Of a stretch of DNA of 64,000 nucleotides, positions 1-48,689 are shown in pieces. Both the position numbers and the translations under genes were made by a program. The notes beneath the pieces were generated by a model, which saw only the letters and a list, made by a program, of their open reading frames with translations, was not told where the DNA came from and searched no databases. This DNA is from Candidatus Hydrogenedentota bacterium (lineage in GTDB: Bacteria > Hydrogenedentota > Hydrogenedentia > Hydrogenedentales > CAITNO01). Where the stretch lies: the NCBI GenBank assembly GCA_012730105.1, contig JAAYBJ010000003.1:13450-77449 (forward strand), given 5' to 3'. Every line of letters begins with the position of its first letter. Position 1 is the stretch's first letter.

Positions 1-1569
1 ATTGCCCATGCGCTGGCGCGGCAATACGACATGGAATACGCCCCGCTGGGCAAAACGCCGAGCGAAGCCGACGCGCTTTTGGCGGTTCCGGAAAGCCTGG
101 CGCTGAAACACCAGATGCTCCCCGTGCAGTTGTCCGGAAACACCCTTGTGACGCTCGTTGTCAGCCCCCAGACCCGCGAACGCCTGCAGGAGGTCGGGGT
201 ATTCCTGGCCAAGCGGATTGAAGCCCTGCTCACGGCCGCGGAAGACATTGAAGCGGAAATCAAGACCCGATACGCGGAACTGGAACGCGACCAGGCGCGG
301 GAGATCGATGCCGCTTTTCCGGACCACGGGGTGGGCAAGGCGGCCGGCGCGGAGAAGCCGGTCATCCAGGAAGGCGGGGCCGCAGGGGCGGAAGTACGGT
401 TCGAGGAGATTGCCCGGGCGGCGGCCGGCGCCTCGGTGGTGCAGATGGTGTCCATGATTATTGAAGGGGCCATCAACGCCGGCGCAACCGACATCCATAT
501 CGACCCCCAGGCTCCCGAATCACGCGTGCGGTACCGAATCGATGCCGTGCTGCATGACGTGATGAGCATCCCTGAAACGCTATACCCCGCCGTGGTGTCC
601 CGTATCAAGATCATCTCCGATTTGGACATTACCGAAACCCGCCACCCCCAGGACGGCCACATCAGCCTGGTACTGGGCGACCGGGAGGTTGACGTGCGCG
701 TGGCCACGCTTCCCACCTACCTGGGGGAGCGTGTCGTGCTGCGGCTGCTGGACCAGAGCGCAGTGCTGTCCGGGATCAAGGATTTGGGCCTCCGGGAAAA
801 AGACGAGAAGACGATGCATCGCATCATCAAGCAGCCCTACGGCATGATACTGGTAACCGGTCCCACGGGCAGCGGCAAGACCACGACGCTGTACGCGGCG
901 TTGAACCAGAAAAACGTGATGACGGAGAGCATCGTGACCCTGGAAGACCCGGTGGAATACCAGCTTTCGGGCATTAACCAGGTCCAGATAGACCCGGACA
1001 TCAACGTCACCTTCGCGAACACCCTGCGCGCGGCCATGCGCCAGGACATTGACGTGCTGCTGGTGGGCGAGATACGCGACCCGGAGACGGCCCAGATCGC
1101 CATCCGCGCCGCCATGACGGGCCACCTGGTATTCAGCACCCTGCACACCAACGACGCCGTAGAAGCGATAAGCACCCTGCGCAACATGGGGGTGCCCGCA
1201 TTCCTGATCGCGACAGCCATGACCGCCGTGATTGGACAGCGACTGGTGCGTAAGATCTGCCCGGAATGCAAGAACGGGTTCAAGCCGTCAGCCAGCCTCC
1301 TGAAATCCATTGGCATGCCGGCAACGGTGAAGCGGCTATATCGTGGAAAGGGATGCCAATCGTGCCACTTCACAGGAAACCGCGGCCGCACCGGTATTTT
1401 TGAAGTGTTTGAAATTACGCCCAAGGTGCGCAATCTGATTGAAACGGAGTCCGGCGCCGAGAAAATCGCCGCCTCGGAGCATTTCGACACCATGGCGGCC
1501 CATTGTCGAGAAAAAATTAAGGCGGGTATTGTGAACCCGGAAGAGTATTTGCGCGTTATAAGGATATGA
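1..1569 (+). CDS. Type II secretion / type IV pilus assembly ATPase, GspE/PilB family (5' end runs off window start)
   Basis: The frame is open from nt 1 (IAHALARQYDMEY...). N-terminal T2SS-E N-domain-like region; Walker A GPTGSGKTTT; C-terminal tetracysteine CPECKNG...CQSCHFTG typical of GspE/PilB. Confidence 0.9.
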   Translation: MAHALARQYDMEYAPLGKTPSEADALLAVPESLALKHQMLPVQLSGNTLVTLVVSPQTRERLQEVGVFLAKRIEALLTAAEDIEAEIKTRYAELERDQAREIDAAFPDHGVGKAAGAEKPVIQEGGAAGAEVRFEEIARAAAGASVVQMVSMIIEGAINAGATDIHIDPQAPESRVRYRIDAVLHDVMSIPETLYPAVVSRIKIISDLDITETRHPQDGHISLVLGDREVDVRVATLPTYLGERVVLRLLDQSAVLSGIKDLGLREKDEKTMHRIIKQPYGMILVTGPTGSGKTTTLYAALNQKNVMTESIVTLEDPVEYQLSGINQVQIDPDINVTFANTLRAAMRQDIDVLLVGEIRDPETAQIAIRAAMTGHLVFSTLHTNDAVEAISTLRNMGVPAFLIATAMTAVIGQRLVRKICPECKNGFKPSASLLKSIGMPATVKRLYRGKGCQSCHFTGNRGRTGIFEVFEITPKVRNLIETESGAEKIAASEHFDTMAAHCREKIKAGIVNPEEYLRVIRI

Positions 1570-3001: not shown

Positions 3002-4462
3002 CTAAGAACCGTCGGCAGAAAGGTCCGTTCCCGAACCTTTGGGAAAACGATTCCGCAACATCGCATACAGTCCGCCGAAAGCGCCATTGCTCATGATCAG
3101 GACGAGGTCATTATTCCCGACCGTTTCCGCAATGAACTCAGCGATGGGCGGCACGGCATCGAAGGCCTGTGCGGAAACCCCGGACCGGCACAGATTTTGC
3201 ACCAGTCCGGCGGTGTCCAGACGGTCCGCGTCGGGAATCGCCCCCCCACGGTGCACCGGCCCCAGGCACACCTCATCCGCCCCGGAGAAGGCCTCTTCCA
3301 GTTCTTTCTGGAAGCGGTTGGTGACGGTGGTGTTGGAGCGGGGCTCAAACACCGCGCGCAGGCGTCTTTCCGGCCAGCGCGTGCGCGCCGCGGCGATCGT
3401 TTCCCGTATGGCAGTGGGGTGGTGGGCGAAATCATCGACAAAAACCGCACCGTCCGCTTCAAGGAACACTTCCAGGCGTCTGCGCACGCCCGGGAAATCG
3501 TTTACGGCGGCCGCAATATCGGCGGCGCCCATACCCAGGGTCGCGGCCACAGCCACCGCGGCCAGGGTGTTCTGCATGTTGTGCCTGCCGAAGAGCGATG
3601 GGGTGAGTTCCCCCCACCTCGTTTCCCGGTGCCAGATTTCCAGGGTGATGACGCCGTTTGGGAAAGGTTTCATTGCGGCCCGCCAGTCGGCTCTCCTTTC
3701 CAGTCCGTAGGTCTCGACCCTGGAAAAGGCGTGCGTTTCCAGAAAAAGTGCATGGTTATCAGCGCACAGGAGCGCCAGGCCTTCTCCGGGAATCTGCCGG
3801 AGCAGGCGCTGAAAGGCGGTTTCAATTTCTCCGAGATCCTTGTATATATCCCCGTGGTCAAACTCAATGGAGGTGACAACGGCGATTTCCGGGATGTAAT
3901 GCAGGAACTTGGCGCGCTTGTCAAAGAATGCGGTGTCATATTCATCGCCCTCGATAACGAATGGCGCGCCGGGATTACCGAGCCGGGCGGAAAAGGGAAA
4001 GCCCAGGGCATCGCCGCCGATCAGGTAGCCGACACCGGGCATGCCCCTGTCAAGCACATGCGCGGTCAGGGCGGTCGTGGTGGTCTTGCCATGGGTGCCG
4101 CAAATGGCCACGGGACGCCTCTGGCGCAACACGTTTTCCTTCAGCCATTCGGGAAGGCTCAAATAGCGCAGGCGGCGGGACAACACAGCCTCCACCTCCG
4201 GATTTCCCCGGCTGAGGGCATTGCCGATGATGACGCTGTCCGGGTTCCAGTCGAGATTCGCCGCCGCGTACCCCTCCGCGACCGACACACCCAGGGCCGC
4301 AACCATGCGCGATGCCGGGGGATACAGGGGTCCGTCGCTGCCTCGCACTTCACAGCCCGCCTCAAGGGCAAGCCGCGCCCCGGCCACCATGGCGGTTCCC
4401 CCGATGCCGGCAAAATGTAGCCGTTTCCCTGGCGGAACTATTGGCTTGTCAGTAAAAGTCAT
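3002..4462 (-). CDS. mpl: UDP-N-acetylmuramate:L-alanyl-gamma-D-glutamyl-meso-diaminopimelate ligase (murein peptide ligase Mpl)
   Basis: Collinear similarity to E. coli Mpl: HFAGIGGTAM, ICGTHGKTTTT, EGDEYDTAFFDKRAKFLHY, DDFAHHPTAI, LVLIMSNGAFGG. The first ATG is at 4462; an upstream GTG at 4474 is the ORF-track start. Overlaps the 3' end of the upstream TMTC-like gene. Confidence 0.85.
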   Translation of the reverse strand: MTFTDKPIVPPGKRLHFAGIGGTAMVAGARLALEAGCEVRGSDGPLYPPASRMVAALGVSVAEGYAAANLDWNPDSVIIGNALSRGNPEVEAVLSRRLRYLSLPEWLKENVLRQRRPVAICGTHGKTTTTALTAHVLDRGMPGVGYLIGGDALGFPFSARLGNPGAPFVIEGDEYDTAFFDKRAKFLHYIPEIAVVTSIEFDHGDIYKDLGEIETAFQRLLRQIPGEGLALLCADNHALFLETHAFSRVETYGLERRADWRAAMKPFPNGVITLEIWHRETRWGELTPSLFGRHNMQNTLAAVAVAATLGMGAADIAAAVNDFPGVRRRLEVFLEADGAVFVDDFAHHPTAIRETIAAARTRWPERRLRAVFEPRSNTTVTNRFQKELEEAFSGADEVCLGPVHRGGAIPDADRLDTAGLVQNLCRSGVSAQAFDAVPPIAEFIAETVGNNDLVLIMSNGAFGGLYAMLRNRFPKGSGTDLSADGS

Positions 4463-6182
4463 TGAAAGGGTCACCTGAGAGGCTGTTTTCGATATCGGTC
4501 ATCAGTCCAGGCTCCAGCCCCAGCGCCTGCTGAAAATAGACCGTTGCCCGGCCGACTTCGCCCAGGGCCAGCATGGCCTTGCCTGTTTCACAGGCCGCAA
4601 GCGCGGCCACCTGCTTCCAGCCTTCCAGTTTGGACAGGCCGATCAGGGGGGCGTAGACGTTCACTGCCGCTTCATATTCCTGAAGGCGCATCAATACCCT
4701 GCCCAACGACATCCGCGCCTCAATTTCATCCTGCGGGGCCGCGAGGGCCCCTTCCGGGTCTTTCGCACGGTGGCGCGCCTGGATATCCAGATAACGCTCA
4801 TAATGCCGCCGGGCCCCCGCGTAATTGTTTTCCAGATCCTCGTAGGTGACGGCGAGATTGTAATGAACACGAGCGCTTTCCGGATTCTCGCGGAGTGTTG
4901 CCCGAAACAGGGTGACATTGTCCCGCCAGTCCAGGTTTCTCCGGGCGGTCATGCCGATAAAAACCAGGCAGAGTACAGCCACCGCCGTCCAGGCCAGACG
5001 CCTCGCGCGCCCGCGCCCGCAAAGAGAGTGAATCATTTCCGCCAGGGCCCACCAGAAGCCTGCCATGGGCACATACATCCAATGTTCGGCCATGGGGGCA
5101 TTCAACGGGAAAACGCCGGAAATGGGCAGCCAGGCCACCAGGAACCAGGCACAGCCCGCGGCAATGCGCTTATTACCCCGGCGCCAGTAAAACATAATGG
5201 CCCCAAGCATTACAACGAGAAACGCCACGCCCAGCAGCACGTACGCCCCGGAGACATCGTCCAGGACCCGTTCCATATGCAGGCCCGTGGGCACGAAAAG
5301 CAGTTTCAGGTAGAGCCCCAAGGCCTGGGCCGCCTCGAACAGACGTTGCGTAACAGGCGCGGCGGCAGATCCCCCCCCCTCGGAGAAACGAAGCACGGTC
5401 GCACGCAGCGCCAGGTAGACGACAAGCATAGCTCCGGCGAGGACCGCCGGCGCGGCCGTTCTGAGCCGGGAGGGCCTGTTCCCTTCATTGCCCGCCTGGT
5501 CCCGCATTACCGGCAGCATCAGGAGAAGCAGAAAGGGATAGATGAGGGTGGACTCCTTGCTCAACAGCCCCGCTGCGAAACATGCCGCGGCGGCCGACAA
5601 GGGGAACGCGGGCCTTTCAGAACGCAAGGCGCGGTATGAAAAATACAGGGCGGCGAAAATCGCCATGCCTGACATCATGTCGGCCCGCCCGCTGATGTAG
5701 GCCACCGCTTCCGTATGCAGGGGATGCACGACGAAAATCAACGGGGCCGCGAGGCGGACGAAAGCCGGGGCGGCAAGACGGTGCAGCATCAGGGCGAACA
5801 GAAGGGCCGCCGCCAGGTGCAGGAGCATGTTCGTCAAATGAAAGGGGAAAGTGGGGATTTCCGGTCCCTTGGGATTTTCTTCGGCCTCCGGCCCCGGACC
5901 GCCCGAAAGCCAATAGTCCGCCATGAAAGACACGGACACCAGTGGCCGGTAAAAATTGCCCTCTCCCCTGCCGAAAGCGTGCTGGTCCTCCCGGAACAGT
6001 TGAAAGAACTTTCCGGGGTCGCGCACATGTTTGTGGAGGAGAACAGAGGAGGCATCATCCCACACCCACTCCCCCCGGAAGGTGTTGGCGTAAGCCAAAA
6101 CACATGCGAGCGCCAACAGCAATGCCACCGTCCACAGAAAGGCATGCGAGTCAGGCCTATTGTCCGTACGTTGCGGATACAT
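4449..6182 (-). CDS. TMTC/PMT-like multi-pass membrane protein with C-terminal TPR repeats (putative glycosyltransferase family 39-like)
   Basis: The N-terminus YANTFRGEWVWDDASSV is the hallmark of TMTC/DUF1736-type mannosyltransferase-like proteins. Roughly 10 predicted TM helices are followed by TPR-like repeats. The likely start is M at 6182 (MYPQR), not the upstream 6278. Confidence 0.65.
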   Translation of the reverse strand: MYPQRTDNRPDSHAFLWTVALLLALACVLAYANTFRGEWVWDDASSVLLHKHVRDPGKFFQLFREDQHAFGRGEGNFYRPLVSVSFMADYWLSGGPGPEAEENPKGPEIPTFPFHLTNMLLHLAAALLFALMLHRLAAPAFVRLAAPLIFVVHPLHTEAVAYISGRADMMSGMAIFAALYFSYRALRSERPAFPLSAAAACFAAGLLSKESTLIYPFLLLLMLPVMRDQAGNEGNRPSRLRTAAPAVLAGAMLVVYLALRATVLRFSEGGGSAAAPVTQRLFEAAQALGLYLKLLFVPTGLHMERVLDDVSGAYVLLGVAFLVVMLGAIMFYWRRGNKRIAAGCAWFLVAWLPISGVFPLNAPMAEHWMYVPMAGFWWALAEMIHSLCGRGRARRLAWTAVAVLCLVFIGMTARRNLDWRDNVTLFRATLRENPESARVHYNLAVTYEDLENNYAGARRHYERYLDIQARHRAKDPEGALAAPQDEIEARMSLGRVLMRLQEYEAAVNVYAPLIGLSKLEGWKQVAALAACETGKAMLALGEVGRATVYFQQALGLEPGLMTDIENSLSGDPFNDFY

Positions 6183-6335
6183 GATAGCCTCACGCGAATT
6201 TATAAATAAACCAGCCGCTATTTTTCTGCATCCCGACTTGCCTTCTGTAAGGGGCCTGCAAAACCGCTTCGCACCCATCGGGCACGCACCACATTCCCTT
6301 GGACTGTTGTGAGCAAAATTATTGCCCTGGTCTGG

Positions 6336-7022
6336 TTATATTTTGCGATCCGGGCCAAGCACGTCGCGTTTCTTGGGGCCGATGCAGATCCAGGAATAAC
6401 TCAGGGGCAGGTATTCCACTTCGATGGACTGCTGGTTCCCGATAATTTTCACGAGGCGCAACACCTTGTGAAATTCCTCGCCTTCACGGACACGGTAGGC
6501 GGTCGTCACCCCATCGGTGGGATCAAAAAGATCGATAAAAACATAGAGTTCGTTGTCGAGCTCCATGAAGCCCGTCACGGTCAACACAGGCCGTTTCACC
6601 ATCAGGTCGGCATATTCCCGGGTCTTTTCAAACCGGGTATTATCCGGTTGGAACACCAAGTAGGCCCGGCACAGCGCCGACAGTTTGCGCCAGCGTTCTT
6701 CTTCCCGGGCCACCTTGATGGACTCTTCTATATCGCGGGTAACCATGCCCAGGGCGGCGCGGCCATTTTCGGTCGCGCCCAACTGCGTCTTGCGCGCCTG
6801 CAATTGGTTGAGAATATCCGGTATCAACACATCATCCTGGGCGGGAATACCAGACATCAGCATTTCCCCCATGATGCTCCGCAACTGCTGGTGGTACTCT
6901 TCAGGAGTGGGTTCGGGCGGCGGCGCCGGCTGGGGCGGCGGGGGCGGGGGTTCCGGCTTGCAGGCCGCCACAAGAAACAGCGCGAGACACAATACTACGG
7001 CAAGTGCGATTTTTCTTTTCAT
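6336..7022 (-). CDS. Lipoprotein with Pro-rich linker (hypothetical)
   Basis: MKRKIALAVVLCLALFLVAAC lipobox, followed by a PEPPPPPPQPAPPPEPTPEE linker. GGAAGAA RBS upstream of the ATG at 7022. The 5' extension to 7355 in the ORF track is unlikely to be real. Confidence 0.6.
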   Translation of the reverse strand: MKRKIALAVVLCLALFLVAACKPEPPPPPPQPAPPPEPTPEEYHQQLRSIMGEMLMSGIPAQDDVLIPDILNQLQARKTQLGATENGRAALGMVTRDIEESIKVAREEERWRKLSALCRAYLVFQPDNTRFEKTREYADLMVKRPVLTVTGFMELDNELYVFIDLFDPTDGVTTAYRVREGEEFHKVLRLVKIIGNQQSIEVEYLPLSYSWICIGPKKRDVLGPDRKI

Positions 7023-7884: not shown

Positions 7885-10008
7885 TTATTTGCCGCGTTTA
7901 CGCAGGGCCACCGCGCCTGCCAGGGCGGTAACGGCGGATGCAAGGGCAAGGCCCACCAAACCAGCCACCGGGATGCCCGTGCCCACAGTAAGGGTGATTT
8001 CGGGCGAAGGCTCGGTGTACATGGAATCCGACACGTCGCAGCGATAGACGCCGGAATCTTCCAGCTGGGCAGCCGCAATCGTGTACATCGGGGAATTCAG
8101 GGCGTCGGGAATCACAATAAACTCGCCGCCGATGTCCTGTTTCTTCCATTCGTAGCTGACGGCGCCGACCGCGCAGGAGGCGGGATCCAGCGCCACTTCG
8201 AGGGTAACCTCATCATCAGGCAAAGCACTGACGATCGTAACCGGTGCGGTGACGATGAGTTTGCAGGTTTCGCGCTGGACAATCACATCGAGATACGCCG
8301 TGTTGAGGTTGCCTATACCGTCAGAGGCCGTGTAGGAAACCACATGCGTACCGATCACGCCGGTATTTACGCTGCCGCTGTCAATGACAATGGATTCGGG
8401 CGGAATATCGCCTTCACAAGCGTCCCATGCCGTGGCGCCCTGCTCGATGTAGGGGGCGCCGCCGTCCAACACGACCGGGCTGGCTGCCAGCAGGGTGATG
8501 ACCGGGCCGGTGGTGTCCATGACATTCACCGTGCGAACCAAGGTGTCCGCTGCGAGGGGAACGCTGTCTGAAACGTCATAGGTGATCAAATAGGTGCCGG
8601 TAACGGCGGTATCCACTGTGTCACCGCCAATAATCACTTCAAGGTCGCCTTCGCACTGGTCCACCGCTGTGGCGCCGGGTTCTTCGTACGAGTCAATGTT
8701 GCACTCCAAGTTCATCGTATCGGCGCCATTCAGGCTCAGCACGGGCGCAAGGGTGTCGGCAATGGTCACCACGCGCTGTTTCTGACCGGCCGGGGTGCCT
8801 TCCAAGTCAACCACATCGTAGAGGATCGTGTAAACGCCGGGGGTGATCAGCGGGAAAGTGACATTGCTCATGACAATGGAGGCGGTCAGGTCGCCGTCCT
8901 CGGGATCGCTGGCGGATACGCCTTCCATGGCCATCAGCTCGGTATACCCTGTGGTATCGCATTCCATATCCACCGTTGCCGGGTCCACGGTAATGACCGG
9001 CCTGCCGCTGAAAGTGGCCTCAATGGTGTGCTCAGCCGTCACACCGGTAAAGGTATATGTATAGGTCTCCAGACCGCCTGCCTCGGTTACCGGCACGCCG
9101 TCCACCAGCACCTGGGCGATAACGTAATCCACGTTGGCATCCACCTGGAAGGCCTGGCTGCCACCGGAAAGGACCGGCACTTCGCCCGACGGGGTAATGG
9201 CGCCGTTGGCGCCCGCGCTGGCGTCAATGGTATAGGCCGCGCGGAAACGGACCGCCACGATACTCCAGTTGTCGCTCACGTTCAAGGTATATGAAAAATT
9301 CTGGGCCGTGTTGGCCGTTTTCACGAGATACCCGGTCAGACCTTTGATGGACGGTGTGGCATTGTTCTGCTGGTCCCACGTCTTGACCGGCGCGCGGCCG
9401 GTAACACTTGCCGAAGGGCCAGCGTTGTGCGTGGCGGCGTCTACCACCAGGTAATCCACGTTGGCAATGAATGAACTGATCAAGGGAGTGGTTCCCGTGC
9501 TTGCGGCGTCCTTGCCATTGGTATCGCCCACTACAGGCGCGAATGCGGGGTCCAGATTACCCATGACATGCACATGCACGACCTTGGCCTCGGTCAGGGC
9601 ATTGGCCATACGGATGCGGACGCTGTGATCGCCGGAAACAGCGTTGTCAATATGGCGGTATAACAGCGTCGTGCTTTGATGCATGGGGGCCACGCTGCGG
9701 ATGGCCTGACGCGCCTTGGTCAGCAACGCGCCGGCGTCGCCGTCCAGATTCGCCCAGTCCACCGTGACATAGTCCGCTGTGGGGCCGGTGTCTGTGCGCG
9801 CATGCACGGTGACGATAATGGTGCGGTTTCTGCCCGCGGGCACGGCGAAAAGGCCGGTATCGGCTTCCTGGCCGCTCACAATGAAGTCGTACCGAGCCAG
9901 CCTCACCGGCGCCGCCGTGGCCGACACGGCCATCAGGGCGAGCGCGAGGCACGCCATGCCGAAAACTACCGTCCGAGGGGCGGCACACCTTCTGGTTTTT
10001 ACTGTCAT
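7885..10008 (-). CDS. Secreted surface protein with tandem Ig-like (DUF5011/HYR-like) domains and a C-terminal GxPVAG-TM-RKRGK anchor
   Basis: Signal peptide MTVKTRRCAAPRTVVFGMACLALALMAVSATA. Repeated GATAxDxCEGDL...YxVxDxxGN motifs. Strong AGAAGGAG RBS before the ATG at 10008. The C-terminal ~90 aa are homologous to the C-terminus of the 10193..14497 product. Confidence 0.8.
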   Translation of the reverse strand: MTVKTRRCAAPRTVVFGMACLALALMAVSATAAPVRLARYDFIVSGQEADTGLFAVPAGRNRTIIVTVHARTDTGPTADYVTVDWANLDGDAGALLTKARQAIRSVAPMHQSTTLLYRHIDNAVSGDHSVRIRMANALTEAKVVHVHVMGNLDPAFAPVVGDTNGKDAASTGTTPLISSFIANVDYLVVDAATHNAGPSASVTGRAPVKTWDQQNNATPSIKGLTGYLVKTANTAQNFSYTLNVSDNWSIVAVRFRAAYTIDASAGANGAITPSGEVPVLSGGSQAFQVDANVDYVIAQVLVDGVPVTEAGGLETYTYTFTGVTAEHTIEATFSGRPVITVDPATVDMECDTTGYTELMAMEGVSASDPEDGDLTASIVMSNVTFPLITPGVYTILYDVVDLEGTPAGQKQRVVTIADTLAPVLSLNGADTMNLECNIDSYEEPGATAVDQCEGDLEVIIGGDTVDTAVTGTYLITYDVSDSVPLAADTLVRTVNVMDTTGPVITLLAASPVVLDGGAPYIEQGATAWDACEGDIPPESIVIDSGSVNTGVIGTHVVSYTASDGIGNLNTAYLDVIVQRETCKLIVTAPVTIVSALPDDEVTLEVALDPASCAVGAVSYEWKKQDIGGEFIVIPDALNSPMYTIAAAQLEDSGVYRCDVSDSMYTEPSPEITLTVGTGIPVAGLVGLALASAVTALAGAVALRKRGK

Positions 10009-10149
10009 GAATGCACTCCTTCTCTTTTTGCGGTTATGGGCCGCGCGTTCACTCACCCAAAAGATAATTCCACACTGCCTTTTTGATCGGACAGATCCGA
10101 CCGATCTGACTGATCACCTTATTTATCGATTCAATAAAGCCCAAAGGGC

Positions 10150-10179
10150 GGCGCTGACGTTACAGTCAGCGCCGCCTTG
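10150..10179 (-). terminator. Rho-independent terminator-like hairpin just 3' of the giant gene
   Basis: 12-bp perfect stem GGCGGCGCTGAC/GTCAGCGCCGCC with a 6-nt loop, 14 nt after the stop; a U-rich tract (CUUUGGGCUUUAUUG) follows on the minus strand. Confidence 0.5.
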
Positions 10180-10192
10180 ATTCAACAGTTGA

Positions 10193-13100
10193 CTAGCGGC
10201 GCTTGCGCAGCGAGGCGACACCGGCGAGCGCGGAGGCGGCGGCTGCCAAGAGCAGGCCGAAGGCGCCCGCAACGGGCACACCGGAAGTGACGATGAGCGC
10301 CACTTCATTGGTGTCCACCGAACTCGACGCATCACTCACGCTGCACTTGTACGCCCCGGTATCCGTGAACTCGGCGCTTTCGATGACATAGATCGCCGCA
10401 TCCGGCGCATCCGGGATCACTTCGCCATTCTTCGTCCAGATGTAATGAAGTTCCCCGGCGCTGCAATTTTCAGACAACGGGGCGGCGGTGAAGGTCGAGG
10501 TGCCGCCCGGCGTTACCGGGTTAACGTCCACCGTCAGTTCATAAGCCAGCTCGCAGTCTTCGGGCTTCACCACCACGGTGCGCGCCGTCGCAACCGAATT
10601 CGCGGAGCTGTCACTGACCGTGTAGGTGAGCACATACGTGGCGACTTCATTTGTATTGGCCACGTCACCGTCGATAACGATGGCGCCGGACAGGTCGCCT
10701 TCGCATTCGTCCCACGCCTCGGCACCGGCTTCCACATAGAGGCTGCCGTCGGTGAGGATCACCGGGTTGTCGCCCAGCAGCGCGATGGACGGAGCCGTAG
10801 TATCCGCGACGGTCACCTCGCGCTCCGCGTTGGCAGTATTGCCGGCGCCGTCGGAAACGCTGTAGGTTACGATCTGCAGGCCGAGGACGGCGGTATTGGC
10901 GCCCTCGCCAATGACGATGGCACTGGTCAAGTCGCCTTCACAGACATCCGCCGCTGTCGCGCCGGCTTCTTCATAGATGTCGACGTTGCATTCCAACTGC
11001 AGTACGGCTTCGCCCAGCAGTTCAATCACCGGCGCGGCTGTGTCGGCCACCGTTACGGTCCGGGTGACTGTGGCCGCATTGCCCGCGGCGTCCTCGGCGT
11101 CGTAAGAAACGATATAGGCGTCGGGCACAGCTGTATTCACCAGGTCATCCCCGGTAATAATTACCGGCACAGAACCGTCTACGTTGTCTTCCGCGGTGGC
11201 GCCTGCTTCAATGAAGATGTCCGTATTGCATTCGAGCGTTTCATCGGAGCCGTTCATGGTAATCACAGGCGCTTCGCCGATGGCGCCGCCAAGATCGGAA
11301 CCTTCATTGTCGCGGATGAAGTTGCCCGCCGAATCTTCGACGGAGAAGGGCGTTACTGTAATCACAATATCGCCGCCGTTGAACATTTCATCGGGACGCA
11401 CCCAAACCAGACGGTATTCGGTGCCGCTCACCGTTTCCACACTGCTGGGATTGGCGGACAAGGTGCCGATGCCGGAACCGGAAACCGTGTAGTTGCCGGG
11501 AACATCCATGCCGATACCGCCCGTCATGTCCTTGTTGTAAGTCACCACGACAGTCAATTCGCTTTCCACTTGGACCAGCACGATATCCGGTTGTGAGGTA
11601 TCGAGCACGATCACCGTGCGGGTTACCTGCACCGCGTCGTTGCCCTGGGCGTCGGCAACATCATAAGTGACCGTGTAGGTGTCAGGAGTATTGGTGTCCA
11701 CCGGATTCACCGTGACAATGCTGCCGGTCAGGTCAACAGCGCCGCAACTGTCAGCGGCGGTGGCGCCAGCATCGGTGTAGACACTGAACATGTCCACGTA
11801 CACAACCGAGTCGCCTAGCAGGGTAATCACCGGCAGGGTGGTATCCACCACATGCACCGTGCGCGTCACCTGGGTCGCGGCATTAAGGGCCGTATCGCTG
11901 ACATCATAGGTGACCGTATAGTCGCCGACAACATCCACGTCCACCGGATTGACCGTAGAAATAGAACCGGTCAACTCACCGTCGCACACGTCATCAGCGG
12001 TCGCACCGGCATCGGTGTAACTGGTACTGCATTCCACCGTTACCTCCGCATCACCCACCAAGGTGATGACCGGCGCCGTGGTATCCACCACGTTGACCTG
12101 GCGCACAACCGGTATCGCGGCGTTACCCGCGGCATCAGATACGGTGTAGGTCACCGTGTAATTGCCGGGCACGGCCGTATCAACAGTGCTGACCGCGTTC
12201 GGGGTCAATGGCCCGTCGCAGTTATCATTCGCGGTGGCGCCAGCATCTGTGTAGGTGGCGCCGCATTCGACGGTCACCGGGCTCACGCCACTCATCGCAA
12301 TAACCGGCAGAACATCGTCCACCACCGTTACAGTGGCGTTGCACGATGCCAAATTACCCGCCCCGTCCCGCACATTCAACACTGCAGATACCGACGGCAT
12401 GTCGGCGCACGTAAAGGTCCGGGTTGCCGCACCGTCAATCAGCCACTGGGTGATGCCGCAGTTGTCCGTGCTCCCGCCGTCAATGGCATTGGCATTAATC
12501 GTGGGCGAACTCAAGTTCACTGTGATGTTCTTGCACACCGCGACCGGGTTGGTCGTGTCCGTAATGGTTAAGGTGGTATTGCAGGTGGCGGTAAGCCCGG
12601 CCGTATCCGTCACGGTGATGGTCACGGTTTGCGTACCCGTCACCATTGTACCGGCCGGGGGATTCTGGGCCACACTGGCGACACCACAATTATCCGCATA
12701 CACGCCGGTCGGGAGGAAGTTGGGCATGACCGCCTGGCAGTTGGCGTCGCCGACCGCCGACTGGGGCGGCGGGCAAACCGAAATCACCGGCGGCGTCACA
12801 TCCACCACCGTCACTACAGGACCGCAGGGCACTGCATTGCCACCCACGTCCGTTACCGTGATTTGAATCGGGATGGGGCCGAGCGGCAGAAGCGTGCCCG
12901 CGGCCGGGAATTGGGTAATACTCGCGATGCCGCAGTTGTCCGTCGCGGTTACCAGCGCGGCCAGGTTCGGCGCCGGCGCCACGCACGCGGCATTAGCGTT
13001 CAGTGTCTGATTGCCCGGGCAGAAAGTGATGACCGGGGCGATCGGGTCGTTCACGGTCACCGTGGCGTTGCACGTTGCCGTGCGGCCGATTCGATCCGTT

Positions 13101-14497
13101 ATGGTCAAGGTCACCGTCTTGCTCGGGATATCGGCGCTGCCGAAAGTGGTCTGAGAGGCAATACGCTTATAGATGCCCGCCTCGGCGATGCTGCCGCCGT
13201 CAATGTTGGCCGCTGTCATGGTGCCTGCACAACTGGCATCCAGGTTCACGGTGTAGGCCGCACACACGGCCGACGGCCCGTTCGCGCTGTATTCATACGC
13301 GCCCATATCACGCGCGCCGCCAAGCGGACGCGGGACCAGGCGAATGTCCTCAGTGATGGCCGAACTACCGGTATTCAAACAGGGCGCGCCGGTGATCTGA
13401 TAGGGGAACGGCGCGGCGCCGGAGAAGTTCGGGAGTGCATTGATATTGCCCGTGCCCGGATAGAGGCCGCCGTCAATATCGCTATAGGTACAGGTCAGGT
13501 TCTTTACGGCGCCGGTGATGGCGGCATTTACAATACCGACATTCCCTGTGTTGCCATAGGAGATGGCAGAAAGGACCGAGCCGGCCGTCGCGGGCAGGGT
13601 GCCCACGGTCACGTTAAAGATACCACCGCTGGTAAGACCATGATTCGGGTTGCCGGGCACAGCCGCACCCAAGCCCACGGTATTGGCCGTGATGGTGCAA
13701 TGAATCACTTGCGGCGTGGAAAGATTGATGAACAGGCCGCCGCCGCCTCGGGCCGGATTGCTCTGCCAGTCTAGGTTACGCGTGGCCGTGTTGCCGTCAA
13801 TCACGCAGTTGATGTACTGGGCGGCCGCCGCATCGCCCGAGATGCCTTCGTTCGCCACACCGCCGCCGCTGACGCTGGCGGTATTGCCGTAAATGCGGCA
13901 GTTGGCGATGACCGGGTTGGACCGCCAGTTGTAGATGCCGCCGCCGCGATAGGCATGATACACGCCCGATACGCCCGCGGCGTTACCGCCCGTAATCTGA
14001 AACCCGTCGAGTCTTGAACCCACCGTGGGGGCGGCGCCTTTGCCGAACACCACCACGTGATAGGCGGGACTGCCCGCGCGGGACGTGGCGCCGTTGATGA
14101 CGGTAACATTGATGCCGGGCGCGCGTTGGTTCAGGAGGGTTTCCTGCTGGCCCGTGCCGCCGCGCCATCCTTCAAACCCGCCATACACGGCGACGTTGTC
14201 CTTCATGACCAGCGAGCCGGCATAGGCGGTCGGGCCGCCCCACAATTCCGTGCGCGCTTCATTGTAGACCACGCCGCCCGGCGCACCGGCGACCCACACC
14301 TGGCCGCCGCCCGCGGCGAACATGGCGTCAATGGCGGGCTGAATCGTCGTAAAGGCGTTCTGCCACGACGTGCCGTTGTTCGCGCCCGTGGCGGATTTGT
14401 CCACGAATCTGACCTGCGCGTCAGCGTCTACTGCGGCAAAAAACGTTACCACAATAGCGCATAGGAAAACAGATAAAGACAATCGAGAGGGTTTCAT
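10193..14497 (-). CDS. Giant (1434-aa) secreted adhesin-like protein: N-terminal right-handed beta-helix (pectin-lyase fold) domain, about 10 Ig-like (DUF5011-type) repeats, and a C-terminal GVPVAG-TM-LRKRR anchor
   Basis: Signal peptide MKPSRLSLSVFLCAIVVTFFAAVDADA; TAAGGAG RBS. Beta-helix repeats (NCRIYGNTASVSGGGV, NCVIDGNTA). Repeated GATAxDxCDGxLT Ig-like modules. The C-terminal Ig-like domain and hydrophobic/basic tail are shared with the 7885..10008 product. Confidence 0.85.
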   Translation of the reverse strand: MKPSRLSLSVFLCAIVVTFFAAVDADAQVRFVDKSATGANNGTSWQNAFTTIQPAIDAMFAAGGGQVWVAGAPGGVVYNEARTELWGGPTAYAGSLVMKDNVAVYGGFEGWRGGTGQQETLLNQRAPGINVTVINGATSRAGSPAYHVVVFGKGAAPTVGSRLDGFQITGGNAAGVSGVYHAYRGGGIYNWRSNPVIANCRIYGNTASVSGGGVANEGISGDAAAAQYINCVIDGNTATRNLDWQSNPARGGGGLFINLSTPQVIHCTITANTVGLGAAVPGNPNHGLTSGGIFNVTVGTLPATAGSVLSAISYGNTGNVGIVNAAITGAVKNLTCTYSDIDGGLYPGTGNINALPNFSGAAPFPYQITGAPCLNTGSSAITEDIRLVPRPLGGARDMGAYEYSANGPSAVCAAYTVNLDASCAGTMTAANIDGGSIAEAGIYKRIASQTTFGSADIPSKTVTLTITDRIGRTATCNATVTVNDPIAPVITFCPGNQTLNANAACVAPAPNLAALVTATDNCGIASITQFPAAGTLLPLGPIPIQITVTDVGGNAVPCGPVVTVVDVTPPVISVCPPPQSAVGDANCQAVMPNFLPTGVYADNCGVASVAQNPPAGTMVTGTQTVTITVTDTAGLTATCNTTLTITDTTNPVAVCKNITVNLSSPTINANAIDGGSTDNCGITQWLIDGAATRTFTCADMPSVSAVLNVRDGAGNLASCNATVTVVDDVLPVIAMSGVSPVTVECGATYTDAGATANDNCDGPLTPNAVSTVDTAVPGNYTVTYTVSDAAGNAAIPVVRQVNVVDTTAPVITLVGDAEVTVECSTSYTDAGATADDVCDGELTGSISTVNPVDVDVVGDYTVTYDVSDTALNAATQVTRTVHVVDTTLPVITLLGDSVVYVDMFSVYTDAGATAADSCGAVDLTGSIVTVNPVDTNTPDTYTVTYDVADAQGNDAVQVTRTVIVLDTSQPDIVLVQVESELTVVVTYNKDMTGGIGMDVPGNYTVSGSGIGTLSANPSSVETVSGTEYRLVWVRPDEMFNGGDIVITVTPFSVEDSAGNFIRDNEGSDLGGAIGEAPVITMNGSDETLECNTDIFIEAGATAEDNVDGSVPVIITGDDLVNTAVPDAYIVSYDAEDAAGNAATVTRTVTVADTAAPVIELLGEAVLQLECNVDIYEEAGATAADVCEGDLTSAIVIGEGANTAVLGLQIVTYSVSDGAGNTANAEREVTVADTTAPSIALLGDNPVILTDGSLYVEAGAEAWDECEGDLSGAIVIDGDVANTNEVATYVLTYTVSDSSANSVATARTVVVKPEDCELAYELTVDVNPVTPGGTSTFTAAPLSENCSAGELHYIWTKNGEVIPDAPDAAIYVIESAEFTDTGAYKCSVSDASSSVDTNEVALIVTSGVPVAGAFGLLLAAAASALAGVASLRKRR

Positions 14498-14858
14498 CAC
14501 GTAGACTCCTTACGTTGTTGTTCCATCGAAGCACACCGCCAACGTGCAGACCGGGTACAGGACTACCGATGTAAAGATATCCTGTTGCCTCAACCCTTCA
14601 CTGTCGTGGCTCCGACGCCTCACATTACTTGTTTCTTATAAATACGACACCCAAGAAGAAACGCCTTGCGTTTCCATATTTTAGTAAAAATCCCAGACTA
14701 CCTGAATAACGCTTACACTACAGGGTAAATCAAATTTCACGAAAAGTCAAGAACTTTAAACGAGGCGCTTGTTTTTTCTCGGGCTAAATGCGATATACAT
14801 CACATCCAGATCTGACTGATATAGACACGGTCCATCAAACACGCATTATTCACAGTAT

Positions 14859-32354: not shown

Positions 32355-33734
32355 TCAGACAGTGACGGACACCTTTTCCTCCATGATGGTAACGTTACGG
32401 ACACCTTTATCGCCCAGCCCGGAGCGAAGCGCTTCCAGCGACGCCGGTTCCCCATGCACCAGCAAAACCTTCTGATGTTTGCCCGGGAAACGCGCCCCGA
32501 AATCAATCAGTTCGGAGCGGCCGGCGTGGGCGCTGAAGGCGTTCATGATCTTCACTTCGGCTTTCAAGGGGCGTTTCACGCCGAAAATTTTAATTTCCGG
32601 CTGCCGTTCCACGATCCGGCGGCCCAAGGTGTTCTCGGCCATAAAGCCCACAATCAGAATGGTGTTGCGCGGGTCTTCGCAGTTGTTCCGCAAGTGGTGC
32701 AGTATACGGCCCACTTCGCACATGCCCGAAGCGGAGATGATGATACAAGGCTCCTTGAGCGTGTTAAGACGCATGGAATCATCCGCGTTCCGGACATACT
32801 CGATGTGGTTGAGTTCAAAAGGATCGCCGGCCGTACTCATTACCTGTTTGGTTTCCCGGTCGAACAACTCCGTGTGGTAGCGAAATATTTCCGTGATATT
32901 TACCGTCAGCGGGCTGTCGACATAAACCGGGATCGTGGGAATAGCACCATTCATTTCCAGGCGTTTCAGCGCGAATACGATTTCCTGGGCGCGTTCCAGC
33001 GCGAAGCTGGGAATGATGATTTTGCCACCCCTTCGGATGGTCGCCAACACTACCTCGGCCAGCTGCGCTTCCATGGCTTCAATGGGGTCATGGTCGCGGT
33101 CGCCGTAGGTGCTTTCCATAATGACGGTGTCGGCATCCTCGGGCACCCAGGGATCGCGGAGCAGAGGCATGTTTTTCCGGCCGAGATCGCCACTGAAAAG
33201 CAGGCGCCGCTCCACGCCATCTTCCTTGTAGTCCACCACCACCATGGCCGAACCGAGCACATGTCCAGCGTCCTGAAAGGTGACAAACACATCCGGAACC
33301 ACTTCAAAACGATCCCCATAGGGATACCCAACGAAATGCCGCATCGCTTCATAGACATCTTCTTCTTCATACAGCGCCGGAACAAATTCACGGTTTTTCT
33401 TCTGCAGCCATTCCGCGTCCCGCTTCTGGATGTTCGCGCTGTCCTGCAGCATCACACCGCACAGGTCATGGGTGGCCGGCGTCGTGTAAATGCGCCCCCG
33501 GTAGCCACTCTTATGAAGCATGGGAACCGTGCCCGTGTGGTCGATATGGGCATGGCTCAGCACCACCGCGTTCAGTTTTTCCGAGACGAAAGGAAAGGAC
33601 CGGTTCTTTCGGGCGGTTTCTTCGCGTTTGCCCTGGAACATACCGCAATCCAGGAGGATACGGTAGCCGTTGATTTCGAGAAGATGCTTGGAACCGGTGA
33701 CACCGCCCGCGGCGCCGTAAGACGTAATTTTCAT
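32355..33734 (-). CDS. MBL-fold beta-CASP ribonuclease (RNase J / CPSF-like)
   Basis: HxHxDH motif SHAHIDHTG and the downstream beta-CASP motifs. 459 aa. Confidence 0.9.
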   Translation of the reverse strand: MKITSYGAAGGVTGSKHLLEINGYRILLDCGMFQGKREETARKNRSFPFVSEKLNAVVLSHAHIDHTGTVPMLHKSGYRGRIYTTPATHDLCGVMLQDSANIQKRDAEWLQKKNREFVPALYEEEDVYEAMRHFVGYPYGDRFEVVPDVFVTFQDAGHVLGSAMVVVDYKEDGVERRLLFSGDLGRKNMPLLRDPWVPEDADTVIMESTYGDRDHDPIEAMEAQLAEVVLATIRRGGKIIIPSFALERAQEIVFALKRLEMNGAIPTIPVYVDSPLTVNITEIFRYHTELFDRETKQVMSTAGDPFELNHIEYVRNADDSMRLNTLKEPCIIISASGMCEVGRILHHLRNNCEDPRNTILIVGFMAENTLGRRIVERQPEIKIFGVKRPLKAEVKIMNAFSAHAGRSELIDFGARFPGKHQKVLLVHGEPASLEALRSGLGDKGVRNVTIMEEKVSVTV

Positions 33735-39718: not shown

Positions 39719-39857
39719 CACTCGCGTGGGATCCGGAAATCCCGGTTCGTCCCGCCACTTGTGGGCCCTGTTTTTTGTATGGTACAGTGAGGCTGCCGAT
39801 TTCACGTTGGTCCTGCGCAAAGACGGGGCCGGTGTTCCTGGCGATAAAGGTGCCCAG

Positions 39858-42197
39858 ATGAAATCCCAACTGATTCCTTCTCTGCTTCTGGCAATACTTG
39901 CGGCGGCATGTCCCTCTATGGGCACGGCGGATGACCAGCCTGAAAACCGGCCGGACGCCCGGCACCACCAGCGCCTGGTGGAAGACGACTGGCAGCTGCA
40001 GGAAGCGCGTCAGGGCCGGAACGCGGGAAGCCTGGAGGCGGTGCGCGCCGCCATGGTCAGGGCGGAAGCCCTGTACCAGGATCTTTCCGGGGTTGCCGGG
40101 ATGGAAGACTGCCGGGAACAAATGGAACTGTTCGCCCGACAAGTGGGCCGCGCCGAAGCCATGGAAGACAGCGAACGCCTGGCGCTTTATTACGCCCTGC
40201 GCTGGTTCACCCGCGAACTGGCGTTGCAGAATCCGCTGATCGCCGACACACCCCTGGTGTTCATGCAACGGCGCCGTTTCATCTGCCAGATGCTGCATGA
40301 ATATCTCGGCTATTATTATGATTACGGGGATATTGAAGGGGGCGGTGTCTTCATCCTCGAACAGCCCGGCAAGTCCTTTGCCGCGCGCGAACTGGTCCGC
40401 GGACGACTGCCACGGGGCAATTACACTACCCTGGCGCTTTCTTATGACGCAAAAACCATCCACTTTGCATTCGCGCCCCGCGCACCCGGGGAAAAACCGG
40501 ATTTCTATTCCGGTGAACGCCGCTGTTTTCATTTGTACAGCATGGACAGCGACGGAAACAACCTGCGGCCGCTGACGGAAGGACCTGACGACGATTTTGA
40601 TCCCTGCCCGCTGCCGGACGGCGGCATCGCGTTCATGTCCACCCGACGGGGCGGTTTCACGCGCTGCAACAACCCCTGGGAACCGCTGCCCGCCCACACG
40701 CTGCACCGGCTGGACCCGGACGGCGCAGTCCGTTGCCTGTCTTATCATGAGACCAGCGAGTGGCATCCGCAGGTGCTCCATGACGGGCGGATCGCCTACA
40801 TCCGATGGGACTATGTGGACCGTTCGGCGGCGCATTTCCACGGCATCTGGGCCACCAACCCCGACGGGACCGAAACGCGCCAGATTTTCGGCAATTATAC
40901 GCAACGGATCAACGCCTGTTATCAGCCGCATCCCGTGCCGGGTTCCCGCCGTCTGGCCTTTCTTGCCGGGGCCCATCACGCCAATGTCGGAGGATCACTT
41001 GTACTATTCGACCCCGCCAAAGCCGCCTTCGACCCCGCGACCGGGGAAGACGATTTCGGTTCCCTTGAACCGTTAACGCCGGAGGTATGTTTCGCGGAGA
41101 CGCCGGACGTGTGGCCTGAATCCTATTTTCACAGCCCCTGGCCGCTTTCAGAAGGCTATTTCCTCATCAGTTTCTCTTTTGATCCCCTGCCAGGCATGAG
41201 CGCCCGTACGAAAGAAGACACCGAAACGGGCATCTATCTGTGGGACCGGTTTGGAAACCTGGAACTCCTGTACCGTGAGCCCGGCATCTCCTGCATGTAT
41301 CCACTCCCCTTGAAACCACGGCCGATACCGCCCGCGCTGCCAAGCCGGCTTGATCCAACACTGGGCGATTCAGGAGAGTTTTATCTCGCCAATGTGTATG
41401 AAAGCCATTTACCATTCCCTAAAGACCGGCCGATCCACGGCTTGCATATTTATCAACTCCTGCCCAAAAGTGAAACGCATGTGGCCAACCAGCCGCGTAT
41501 CGGGTATGCCAATGCGGAATCCGCCCGGATGCTGCTGGGTTTCGTGCCGGTCGAAAAGGATGGTTCCGCCCGTTTCAAGGCGCCCGCCGGGAAACCGCTC
41601 GCCTTTCAGGCCGTGGATGAATCCGGCCGAGCGGTGCAGGGTATGCGCAGCGCCGTGTACCTGCAGCCGGGCGAACGCCGGAGTTGTGTGGGCTGCCATG
41701 AATCTCCGGAACGATCCGGAACTGTTCCCTTAGGAAAACAGATCGCCTTCGGCCGCGGGCCTTCCGAGATTACGCCCGGCCCGGACGGCGTCATGCCGTG
41801 GAGTTTTCCCAGGCTGGTGCAACCGATTCTGGACACGCACTGCGTCCGCTGCCATGGCGAAGCGGGCAATGCAAGACCATGCCTTGAGGCGAAGGTACAG
41901 GACGAATTTACTGAGGCTTACACCGTGCTGAAACCTTACGCGCGCTGGTACGAATGGGGCGGGGAAAGCATCAGCATAATTGTAACCCGTCCGGGCGAAA
42001 TGCCCGCCGACGTGAGTCCATTGACCGCCATACTGAATGATGCCAATCACGCGTCCGAACTGCGCCTGCCCGAGGCCGCGCAGCGAATCCTGTACTTGTG
42101 GCTGGACGGTAACGCGGCGTTTTACGGAACCTACTCGCCGACCGAGCGGCTCGCCCAGTTTGAAGGCAGTAAGGTGCCGCCTCCCGCGCTGCAGTGA
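39858..42197 (+). CDS. Secreted beta-propeller protein with C-terminal Planctomycete-type cytochrome c (PSCyt1-like) region, double CXXCH
   Basis: Signal peptide MKSQLIPSLLLAILAAAC. TolB/HzsA-like propeller segments. CVGCHESP and FPRLVQPILDTHCVRCHGEAGN, the latter matching the PSCyt1 consensus (V/I)xPILxxxCxxCHG. Confidence 0.8.
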   Translation: MKSQLIPSLLLAILAAACPSMGTADDQPENRPDARHHQRLVEDDWQLQEARQGRNAGSLEAVRAAMVRAEALYQDLSGVAGMEDCREQMELFARQVGRAEAMEDSERLALYYALRWFTRELALQNPLIADTPLVFMQRRRFICQMLHEYLGYYYDYGDIEGGGVFILEQPGKSFAARELVRGRLPRGNYTTLALSYDAKTIHFAFAPRAPGEKPDFYSGERRCFHLYSMDSDGNNLRPLTEGPDDDFDPCPLPDGGIAFMSTRRGGFTRCNNPWEPLPAHTLHRLDPDGAVRCLSYHETSEWHPQVLHDGRIAYIRWDYVDRSAAHFHGIWATNPDGTETRQIFGNYTQRINACYQPHPVPGSRRLAFLAGAHHANVGGSLVLFDPAKAAFDPATGEDDFGSLEPLTPEVCFAETPDVWPESYFHSPWPLSEGYFLISFSFDPLPGMSARTKEDTETGIYLWDRFGNLELLYREPGISCMYPLPLKPRPIPPALPSRLDPTLGDSGEFYLANVYESHLPFPKDRPIHGLHIYQLLPKSETHVANQPRIGYANAESARMLLGFVPVEKDGSARFKAPAGKPLAFQAVDESGRAVQGMRSAVYLQPGERRSCVGCHESPERSGTVPLGKQIAFGRGPSEITPGPDGVMPWSFPRLVQPILDTHCVRCHGEAGNARPCLEAKVQDEFTEAYTVLKPYARWYEWGGESISIIVTRPGEMPADVSPLTAILNDANHASELRLPEAAQRILYLWLDGNAAFYGTYSPTERLAQFEGSKVPPPALQ

Positions 42198-48400: not shown

Positions 48401-48689
48401 AGAACCTGTCGAAGGCGAAGGTGAAGCCCCCGTTGAGGGCGAAGGTGAAGTAACCGCCGAAGGCGAGGGCGAAGAACCTGTCGAAGGTGAAGGCGAAGAG
48501 CCTGTCGAAGGCGAGGGTGAAACCCCCGTTGAGGGCGAAGGCGAGGGCGAAGAAGAAGCCTGCGGTTGCTGCCAGCAGAATGAAAAAGCCCTTACCATAA
48601 AAGAAATGGTAGAAAAGAGTTTGGGCGACTGGCTGTTAATCGGCGTAAGCCTTCTTGGACTTACGGCTTTGGCCGGTATGCGCAAATAA
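45441..48689 (+). CDS. Secreted acidic-repeat protein B, internalin-like: signal peptide, leucine-rich repeats, about 8 InlB-B-repeat (Listeria-Bacteroides repeat)-type domains, about 27 copies of EGEGEEPV, Cys-rich/GDWLLIG C-terminal anchor
   Basis: AAAGGGA RBS. Signal peptide [25 protein letters not shown]-like LxxLxxLxLxxNxI segments. Repeated YTLTIxxxGxGTxxPxxGxYxYxxGxxVxLxAxPxxGWxFxxWxGD modules. C-terminus [43 protein letters not shown]. Confidence 0.85.
47905..48555 (+). repeat. Near-perfect 24-bp coding tandem repeats (GAAGGCGAAGGTGAAGAACCTGTC x about 27) encoding EGEGEEPV
   Basis: Direct reading. Copies differ mostly at synonymous third positions (gag/gaa, ccc/cct, gtc/gtt). Confidence 0.85.

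Follow-up and report, generated by a model that had tools for sequence, protein, structure and literature searches.

A recurrent G-x-P-V-A-G tail at the C-terminus of adhesin-like proteins of Hydrogenedentota, a candidate class of cell-surface sorting signal

The window analysed here is a stretch of 64,000 nucleotides from a Candidatus Hydrogenedentota bacterium (contig JAAYBJ010000003.1). It contains two adjacent minus-strand genes, at 7885..10008 and 10193..14497, whose products of 707 and 1434 residues end in the same kind of tail, consisting of a G-x-P-V-A-G motif, a transmembrane helix and a basic cluster. The tail recurs on unrelated secreted proteins and is recognised by no curated model, and for these reasons it looks, as far as sequence can tell, like a class of cell-surface sorting signal that is new to the curated collections. 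We consider it probable, with some reserve, that both genes encode Sec-exported, adhesin-like surface proteins with an uncurated tripartite C-terminal sorting or anchoring domain, which is denoted GxPVAG-CTERM.

Both open reading frames (ORFs) are present where the preliminary description of this DNA had placed them; at their full extent they cover 7885-10056 and 10193-14500. The genes are called with the same lengths of 707 and 1434 residues in the ENA metagenome contig ERZ773285 NODE_746, and the shorter one is called on four metagenome contigs. The protein ends of the pair, ...TGIPVAGLVGLALASAVTALAGAVALRKRGK and ...SGVPVAGAFGLLLAAAASALAGVASLRKRR, had been quoted exactly. In both, S/T-G-[IV]-P-V-A-G stands after an Ig-like domain and is followed by a 19-residue hydrophobic stretch and then by LRKR. 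The tail of the 707-residue protein, TGIPVAG-LVGLALASAVTALAGAVAL-RKRGK, is encoded at 7888..7980 and is delimited by its sequence and by the profile-derived alignment of tails; that of the 1434-residue protein, SGVPVAG-AFGLLLAAAASALAGVASL-RKRR, lies at 10196..10285 and consists of the motif, the transmembrane helix and the basic cluster. The two proteins are paralogous. A homologous C-terminus of about 90 residues had been proposed; the homology is real, but it is considerably longer: in BLASTP the two proteins align over their final ~370 residues with 41% identity (E 1e-57). Besides the tail and the Ig-like domain, the shared region takes in three modules of the DUF5011 type, the last three of the longer protein aligning with the three of the shorter.

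The tail is found in many other proteins. A profile of the tail only (four sequences, 33 columns) was compared by HMMER with 1.84 billion representative proteins, and gave 16 matches at E<=1e-3. Fifteen of these are true (E 1e-11 to 8e-4), and all 15 are located at the extreme C-terminus, 0-5 residues from the protein end; the sixteenth, P0128, was rejected as a low-complexity false hit. A degenerate DNA pattern, written in frame so as to encode G-x-P-x-x-G-x-x-G-(8 non-polar)-A-x-x-G-x4-R-[KR], gives zero false matches in 384 kb of local sequence and has 54 matches on 52 metagenome contigs. Three of them are wrong-frame, GC-rich artefacts. The other 51 are in the tail frame, and in 49 of these a stop codon follows 1-4 codons past the basic cluster, while one has 19 extra residues. 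Together with two more variants found beside pattern-matched genes, the total comes to 58 unique tails, the longer window protein being a member, which share a gapless core of 29 residues.

The consensus of the tail is [GT]-[ST]-G-[VIM]-P-[VA]-[AT]-G-x-x-G-L-[AG]-L-x-A-A-x-x-A-L-[AG]-G-x-x-x-L-R-[RK]-[RK], followed by 1-3 residues. Over the 58 tails, conservation is highest at G(-1) (57/58), P(+1) (58/58) and G(+4) (55/58) of the motif, at G7 (57/58), A16 (56/58) and G19 (58/58) of the helix, and in the basic cluster, where R and the following [RK] are each present in 58/58, mostly with a third basic residue; in the metagenome set these figures are circular, because G, P, G, G, A, G and R were imposed by the pattern. 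Conservation can thus be judged semi-independently only from the 17 tails derived with the profile. Among these no variation occurs at P, G29 and R34, while G9, G17 and A26 are each found in 90% or more. A word-indexed protein search returned three proteins when queried with the Ig-like domain plus tail, and one when queried with a 46-residue alignment of tails; it overlooked even the window's own proteins, so that it lacks the sensitivity needed for short tails, and it was given no weight as to how rare the tail is. Scanning GTDB with the Ig-like domain plus tail gave mostly Ig domains of Flavobacteriia without the tail, plus three Hydrogenedentota loci. All named members and relatives belong to Candidatus Hydrogenedens, Hydrogenedentes or Hydrogenedentota. 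By these alignments the tail is a separable homology domain rather than a chance transmembrane helix, and a modular one that is specific to one lineage.

The proteins that carry the tail are diverse. One group of carriers lacks an Ig domain ahead of the tail and has in its stead a linker, (GD)n or GEGE, that leads into E-A-G-M-P-V-A-G (P0129, P0133, P0138, L023, L037, L043, L044, L053, L061 and L069). Among the passengers of this linker type are an enzyme resembling arylsulfatases (L069), a cupredoxin (L044), a beta-helix protein similar to the choice-of-anchor Q family (L061) and proteins without a family match. When the carriers are compared by BLAST without their tails, they fall into one large Ig/beta-helix superfamily and five singletons, of which the arylsulfatase-like protein and the cupredoxin are the two identified; a 170-residue protein (L032) is counted as a further carrier, with no similarity outside the tail. 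The tail is joined to at least six unrelated passenger types. A signal-peptide-like N-terminus is present in 21 of the 24 complete carriers, according to a crude test of hydrophobicity and charge, and the other three have a non-ATG start or are truncated. Tail genes occur as tandem pairs in the window and at four further loci (L020, L029, L036, L055), and six different carriers with a shared (GD)n linker come from a single metagenome assembly, SDBV01.

Eight attributes of tripartite sorting signals have been listed by Haft (bioRxiv 10.1101/2023.06.07.544157, section 5). Seven of them are seen in the tail family: the C-terminal site, the signature motif, the hydrophobic middle of transmembrane length, the basic cluster, the signal peptides, the unrelated passengers, and the existence of homologues that lack the tail or have another sorting signal. 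The eighth, occurrence in several copies per genome, is partly documented. The sulfatase and cupredoxin carriers contradict a restriction of the tail to the Ig module of one paralogue family.

Known sorting-signal models were scanned in the NCBIfam release of June 2026 and in Pfam, and none reaches its cutoff on the window tails. The scores are 9.0 for PEP_CTERM (TIGR02595; cutoff 16), 8.6 for LPXTG_anchor (TIGR01167; 15.9), 16.7 for Rumino_NPXTG (23.5) and 11.6 for CoaP_CTERM (35), and the Pfam model of PEP-CTERM (PF07589) scores 12.5 against a cutoff of 20.7. The preliminary description had proposed a distinct C-terminal class with the tripartite layout of PEP-CTERM or LPXTG signals. This is borne out by the recurrence of the tail and by the scores, which show that it is not canonical PEP-CTERM.

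Below the cutoffs, the matches of 17 diverse tails are scattered over Rumino_NPXTG (10 tails), LPXTG_anchor (7), IPTL_CTERM (6), CoaP_CTERM (6), GVDTG_CTERM (3), PGAP-CTERM (2), MYXO-CTERM (2) and PEP_CTERM (2, best E 0.95). Pfam gives likewise scattered weak matches over the 17 tails, with Gram_pos_anchor in 8. The sole relative that reaches a cutoff is P0126, with the motif IPVTS, which scores 15.9 against the 15.9 of LPXTG_anchor over the whole model, the others scoring 13.4-13.9. P0126 is also the best relative by IPTL_CTERM (TIGR04174; 19.8 against 20.5, at full model length), a model that has no match on the window tails. The GlyGly-CTERM model (TIGR03501) has no match on any tail. The weak matches thus appear to lean towards LPXTG/NPXTG and IPTL-CTERM at least as much as towards PEP-CTERM. 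In the NCBI annotation, members are named ‘DUF5011’ or ‘immunoglobulin-like domain-containing protein’, indicating that the tail goes unrecognised by the pipeline. The literature searched, Hydrogenedentota genome papers included, contains nothing on the motif, or on sortases, exosortases or sorting systems of Hydrogenedentota.

How the tail might act can be outlined from analogous systems. Once the protein has been exported by Sec and has lost its signal peptide, the tail would retain it in the cytoplasmic membrane, R-K-R lying on the inner side and G-x-P-V-A-G at the outer surface. A putative dedicated, membrane-embedded protease or transpeptidase would recognise the motif together with the small-residue face of the helix (G7, A16, [AG]18-G19) and cleave at or near G-x-P-V-A-G, and the passenger would then be either attached to an anchor at the cell surface or handed on for export across the outer membrane. 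Since the sampled flanks hold no candidate enzyme gene, we infer both the cleavage and the enzyme by analogy with the LPXTG/sortase, PEP-CTERM/exosortase and GlyGly-CTERM/rhombosortase systems (PMC3237569; bioRxiv 10.1101/2023.06.07.544157). The motif is intermediate between LPXTG and the exosortase signals that begin with [VI]-P, so that either enzyme superfamily, or a new one, may be involved.

The search for such an enzyme covered the window and the surroundings of the other carriers. No sortase, exosortase, rhombosortase or CPBP protein is present among the window ORFs scanned or in about 550 kb of carrier flanks, and the scanned window ORFs include no rhomboid protein; the exosortase pathway suggested for the tail is unproven. 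Pfam annotation of 10-kb flanks in several independent contexts gave no enzyme candidate, nor did crude searches for active-site motifs (TLxTC, CSG) in the ~550 kb. All-against-all clustering of 1151 ORFs (~530 kb) revealed no recurrent neighbour beyond local synteny and an abundant DUF1559/N_methyl family. Ten polytopic neighbours were scanned and found to be transporters, a flippase and one ordinary rhomboid, with nothing exosortase-like among them. That rhomboid, encoded 11 kb from the tail gene in L030, was rejected as a rhombosortase, with 35.5 bits against a cutoff of 84. The lipoprotein, the membrane protein with TPR repeats, the Mur ligase and the type II secretion system (T2SS) ATPase of the window are not conserved beside tail genes elsewhere. 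Enzyme-free flanks fit a many-to-one system, in which the enzyme gene lies elsewhere, and fit equally well with there being no enzyme.

Several of these results weigh against the tail as a processed sorting signal. The failure to find an enzyme in the flanks is one, and the circularity of the metagenome counts is another. The documented copies of the tail per genome are 2-3, or six as inferred from one metagenome. A single Ig-rich superfamily accounts for most carriers, and within it duplication may have spread the tail in part along with the Ig module. A helix of invariant length with conserved intramembrane positions is not usual in sorting signals, and could equally belong to a permanent transmembrane anchor with specific packing.

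Such an anchor is the main rival explanation: the tail would stay uncleaved and the proteins would remain on the cytoplasmic membrane, with the conserved G-x-P-x-x-G cap and the small residues serving for helix capping, packing, oligomerisation or docking of a partner. The absence of a sorting enzyme from every sampled flank is what would be expected, as is a gapless core of fixed length with near-invariant small residues at G7, A16 and G19, resembling a packing interface, and a periplasm-facing sulfatase or cupredoxin could well function while tethered to the inner membrane. It is harder to reconcile with the seven of Haft's eight attributes of processed signals that the tail displays, and with the fact that homologous passengers elsewhere have genuine signals for sorting or secretion at this position. 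In addition, rods of 1400-2100 residues with at least 10 Ig modules would be hard to fit into a diderm periplasm when tethered to the inner membrane. On this evidence we regard a permanent anchor as rather unlikely, and a processed sorting signal as the better account of the tail.

If the tail is processed, it may be a variant of a known signal. An exosortase or archaeosortase signal, kin to IPTL-CTERM, VPDSG-CTERM and VPLPA-CTERM, was the reading of the preliminary description. PEP-CTERM proteins and these variants have the same layout of motif, transmembrane helix and Arg-Lys cluster at the extreme C-terminus; their carriers likewise have signal peptides and include unrelated passengers in Gram-negative-type environmental bacteria, and the tail motif starts with [VI]-P as do VPEP and IPTL. 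IPTL_CTERM came within 0.7 of its cutoff in P0126 and PEP_CTERM and VPLPA-CTERM match weakly. The VPDSG-CTERM motif is described in TIGRFAM as intermediate between VPEP and LPXTG, and VPVAG is likewise. However, the motif is G-x-P-V-A-G and not P-E-P, with neither an acidic residue nor a second proline after [VI]-P, the helix has a fixed length and a conserved internal A..G, the PEP-CTERM models of NCBIfam and Pfam stay far below their cutoffs, and no exosortase is linked to the tail, the polytopic neighbours scanned included; this reading seems decidedly unlikely. Still less probable is a divergent form of the LPXTG signal ([ILV]-P-x-[TA]-G) that a transpeptidase of the sortase family would cut. 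Here the layout of motif, transmembrane helix and basic tail is again shared (TIGR01167, PF00746; Rumino_NPXTG NF033846), [VI]-P-[VA]-[AT]-G agrees with L-P-x-T-G at P, [T/A] and G, and the commonest weak matches are of this kind (7-10 of the 17 tails; Gram_pos_anchor 8 of 17), including the one relative at the cutoff. Yet position 4 is mostly Ala, with Thr in 7/58, the spacer between motif and helix is absent, and the window tails reach little more than half of the LPXTG_anchor cutoff. There is no sortase-like ORF with TLxTC in ~550 kb. Hydrogenedentota are moreover regarded as diderm, and an outer-membrane porin of the AlgE type adjoins one carrier gene. A rhombosortase-type signal similar to GlyGly-CTERM, cleaved by a specialised rhomboid before type II secretion exports the passenger, appears very improbable. 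The tripartite form, the small, Gly-rich motif (S-G...A-G-x-x-G) and the passenger fold recall GlyGly-CTERM proteins (TIGR03501/TIGR03902) such as Rhombotarget A (PDB ID: 9cdv), the best fold match in the PDB; a T2SS/type IV pilus-type ATPase gene lies at 31-1569 of the window, and a rhomboid near the tail gene in L030. Against this, no tail matches the GlyGly-CTERM model, that rhomboid falls far under the rhombosortase cutoff, the fold similarity (template-modelling (TM) score 0.38) is that of beta-helices in general, and rhomboid and T2SS genes are common in bacteria.

The tail could also mark a complete, undescribed sorting system of Hydrogenedentota, whose enzyme lies outside the sortase, exosortase/archaeosortase, rhombosortase and CPBP-type myxosortase families and in which the conserved A..[AG]G face of the fixed-length helix would be the recognition surface of a new intramembrane enzyme; we think this unlikely. 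If it were true then, together with the GDWLLIG tails described below, the phylum would have at least two private surface-display pathways. LPXTG, PEP-CTERM, PGF-CTERM, GlyGly-CTERM and MYXO-CTERM signals each led to a dedicated surface-display enzyme. The tail would be of value chiefly in tracking down the cognate enzyme, since it provides a query for phylogenetic profiling and the enzyme may be a new subfamily or family. The tail class flags part of the surface proteome of an uncultured phylum, namely a sulfatase, a cupredoxin and giant adhesin-like proteins of the beta-helix/Ig type, and a model of it would improve annotation that is now limited to ‘DUF5011’ or ‘Ig-like’. Activated sludge and anaerobic digesters, in which it matters how cells attach and form flocs, commonly contain Hydrogenedentota.

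The 1434-residue protein consists of a signal peptide, a beta-helix, an array of Ig-like modules, a terminal Ig-like domain and the tail, as delimited from the ORF and from Pfam and NCBIfam matches (all features given here are on the minus strand). The signal peptide (14417..14497), read heuristically from the sequence, is of the Sec type and has the sequence MKPSRLSLSVFLCAIVVTFFAAVDADA, followed by QV. The beta-helix spans residues ~28-405 (13283..14416), and the array, with about 10 Ig-like modules placed by Pfam and by motif positions, spans residues ~410-1310 (10568..13270). Motif positions indicate about 11 Ig-like modules when the terminal one is included. The array before the terminal domain comprises three HYR-like modules, 3+3 DUF5011/PF16403 modules, and one unassigned insert of ~110 residues. 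The DUF5011 and HYR modules that had been described are thus present: PF16403 is detected in six stretches (262 bits, 1.8e-79; cutoff 27), and HYR at 4.7e-11. The terminal Ig-like domain (W...GxYxCxVSD; residues ~1315-1400, 10298..10555) matches Ig_2 and, weakly, Ig_3.

In the 707-residue protein, whose gene is defined by its ORF and by BLASTP to the longer protein, a signal peptide read directly from the sequence (MTVKTRRCAAPRTVVFGMACLALALMAVSATA, followed by AP) is encoded at 9913..10008. Three DUF5011/PF16403 Ig-like modules follow at 8269..9000 (three stretches, 101.6 bits, 2.4e-29; cutoff 27), and then the terminal Ig-like domain at 7984..8259, with the motif GVYRCDVSD and a V-set score of 16.7 bits. 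A terminal Ig domain had been claimed for both proteins, and it is seen in both, but at or just under the Pfam cutoff, Ig_2 scoring 23.3 bits in the shorter and 26.8 bits in the longer protein against 27. An AlphaFold (AF2) model of the Ig-like domain and tail, built from four sequences, was too poor to be used (predicted local distance difference test, pLDDT, 37). Sequence searches of the PDB with the N-terminal regions of both proteins gave no match, and promoter and terminator scans gave no signal above chance. A protein from Hydrogenedentales (L012, 22-4182, plus strand) contains more than 12 tandem copies of the Ig-like module that precedes the window tails (Y.W.K...G.Y.C.V.D); it has no G-x-P-V-A-G tail, and a dockerin-like segment is found at its end.

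The N-terminal region of the longer protein had been described as a beta-helix of the pectin-lyase type, and at the level of the fold this is right. The first 470 residues have 171 homologues, and the annotation of many of them names a right-handed parallel beta-helix or a polymorphic-outer-membrane-repeat protein (PF13229, PF02415); those beyond the species reach E 1e-66. The AF2 model, built on 59 homologues, has a pLDDT of 79.9 and a predicted TM score (pTM) of 0.81 and shows coiled short strands. Foldseek places Rhombotarget A (E 7e-6) at the top of its PDB matches, followed by AlgE4 epimerase, pectin methylesterases and phage tailspikes. Pfam Beta_helix does not match the protein itself at E<=0.01. 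The domain ends in a choice-of-anchor Q motif, detected by NCBIfam at residues 370-404 (choice_anch_Q, NF041518; 28.6 bits against a cutoff of 25). The preliminary description had suggested a glycan-binding adhesin or a polysaccharide lyase-like enzyme, and either may apply; by sequence similarity, the closest relatives appear to be PMP-repeat/choice-of-anchor Q beta-helix proteins, and no enzyme was shown to match closely.

The N-terminal ~400 residues are thus a member of the choice-of-anchor Q (NF041518) or PMP-type (PF02415, PF13229) beta-helix proteins. In other phyla the homologues end in a T9SS type A domain (PF18962), a dockerin, an SLH domain or an IPTL-like tail, whereas the window protein continues into Ig modules and the G-x-P-V-A-G tail. 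With such varied C-terminal devices among its homologues, hence the name ‘choice of anchor’, the Hydrogenedentota tail occupies a known sorting-signal position. Many homologues, from other metagenomes, of the region encoded at 13087-14497 (P0010, P0021, P0035, P0042, P0043, P0046, P0049, P0053, P0092, P0093 and P0096) have a very short tail without a transmembrane helix, for example ...FYLPAVLNHR, ...LYLPIVTKSP, ...IFLPMITR and ...VFLPIVRR. Such tails may represent a further C-terminal signal of choice-of-anchor proteins.

The window contains a second type of tail. Only four of its ORFs end in a hydrophobic stretch and a basic tail, two with G-x-P-V-A-G and two with GDWLLIG at 43-48 kb, and among these four ends the two different tail grammars that had been described are confirmed. 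Two dedicated surface-protein pathways, as had been proposed from them, would be one way to explain two tail types. The GDWLLIG genes, identified by sequence, lie on the plus strand at 43132-44943 and 45441-48689. In their tail, some 20 amphipathic residues separate a Cys-rich stretch (CCGTSGK / CGCCQQNEK) from GDWLLIG, after which come a hydrophobic helix and a (V/M)RK end; the tail has no NCBIfam match and was seen in none of ~80 related loci. Five domains similar to InlB B-repeats (PF18998) are present in the larger carrier.

Two genes downstream of the 707-residue tail gene, after a proline-rich lipoprotein (6336-7022), a polytopic protein is encoded at 4449-6278 on the minus strand. It has about seven transmembrane helices, the first of them followed by a WDD motif, and a C-terminal TPR region, and Pfam detects the TPRs only; from the motif and the topology it looks like a TMTC/PMT-type GT-C protein glycosyltransferase. 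The ATPase of the type II secretion/type IV pilus kind (T2SSE, E 3e-127; 31-1569, plus strand) lies 6 kb from the tail genes, beside two ORFs without a family match. Its interest lies solely in the export of rhombosortase substrates by T2SS in Acinetobacter, where Rhombotarget A, which is such a substrate, has been reported to use T2SS (PMC5861075). Proteins with a Transglutaminase-core domain, which has a papain-like Cys protease fold, are encoded 0.4-8.4 kb from tail genes in two independent contexts (L016, 23830-25320, and L078, 10837-14639, both minus strand); they are a weak lead to the processing enzyme and may be a coincidence. Proteins with the middle domain of the hydrazine synthase alpha subunit (PF18582) are encoded in the window (39726-42197, plus strand) and in L020 (6832-9657, plus strand), in the latter beside the tail gene pair. 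Finally, the window encodes an MBL/beta-CASP nuclease (32355-33734, minus strand) whose best NCBIfam match is the model of the type VII CRISPR-associated Cas14, with 412 bits (cutoff 800), and which next scores 315 bits with aCPSF1; as both scores are under the cutoffs, it is probably a generic beta-CASP RNase.

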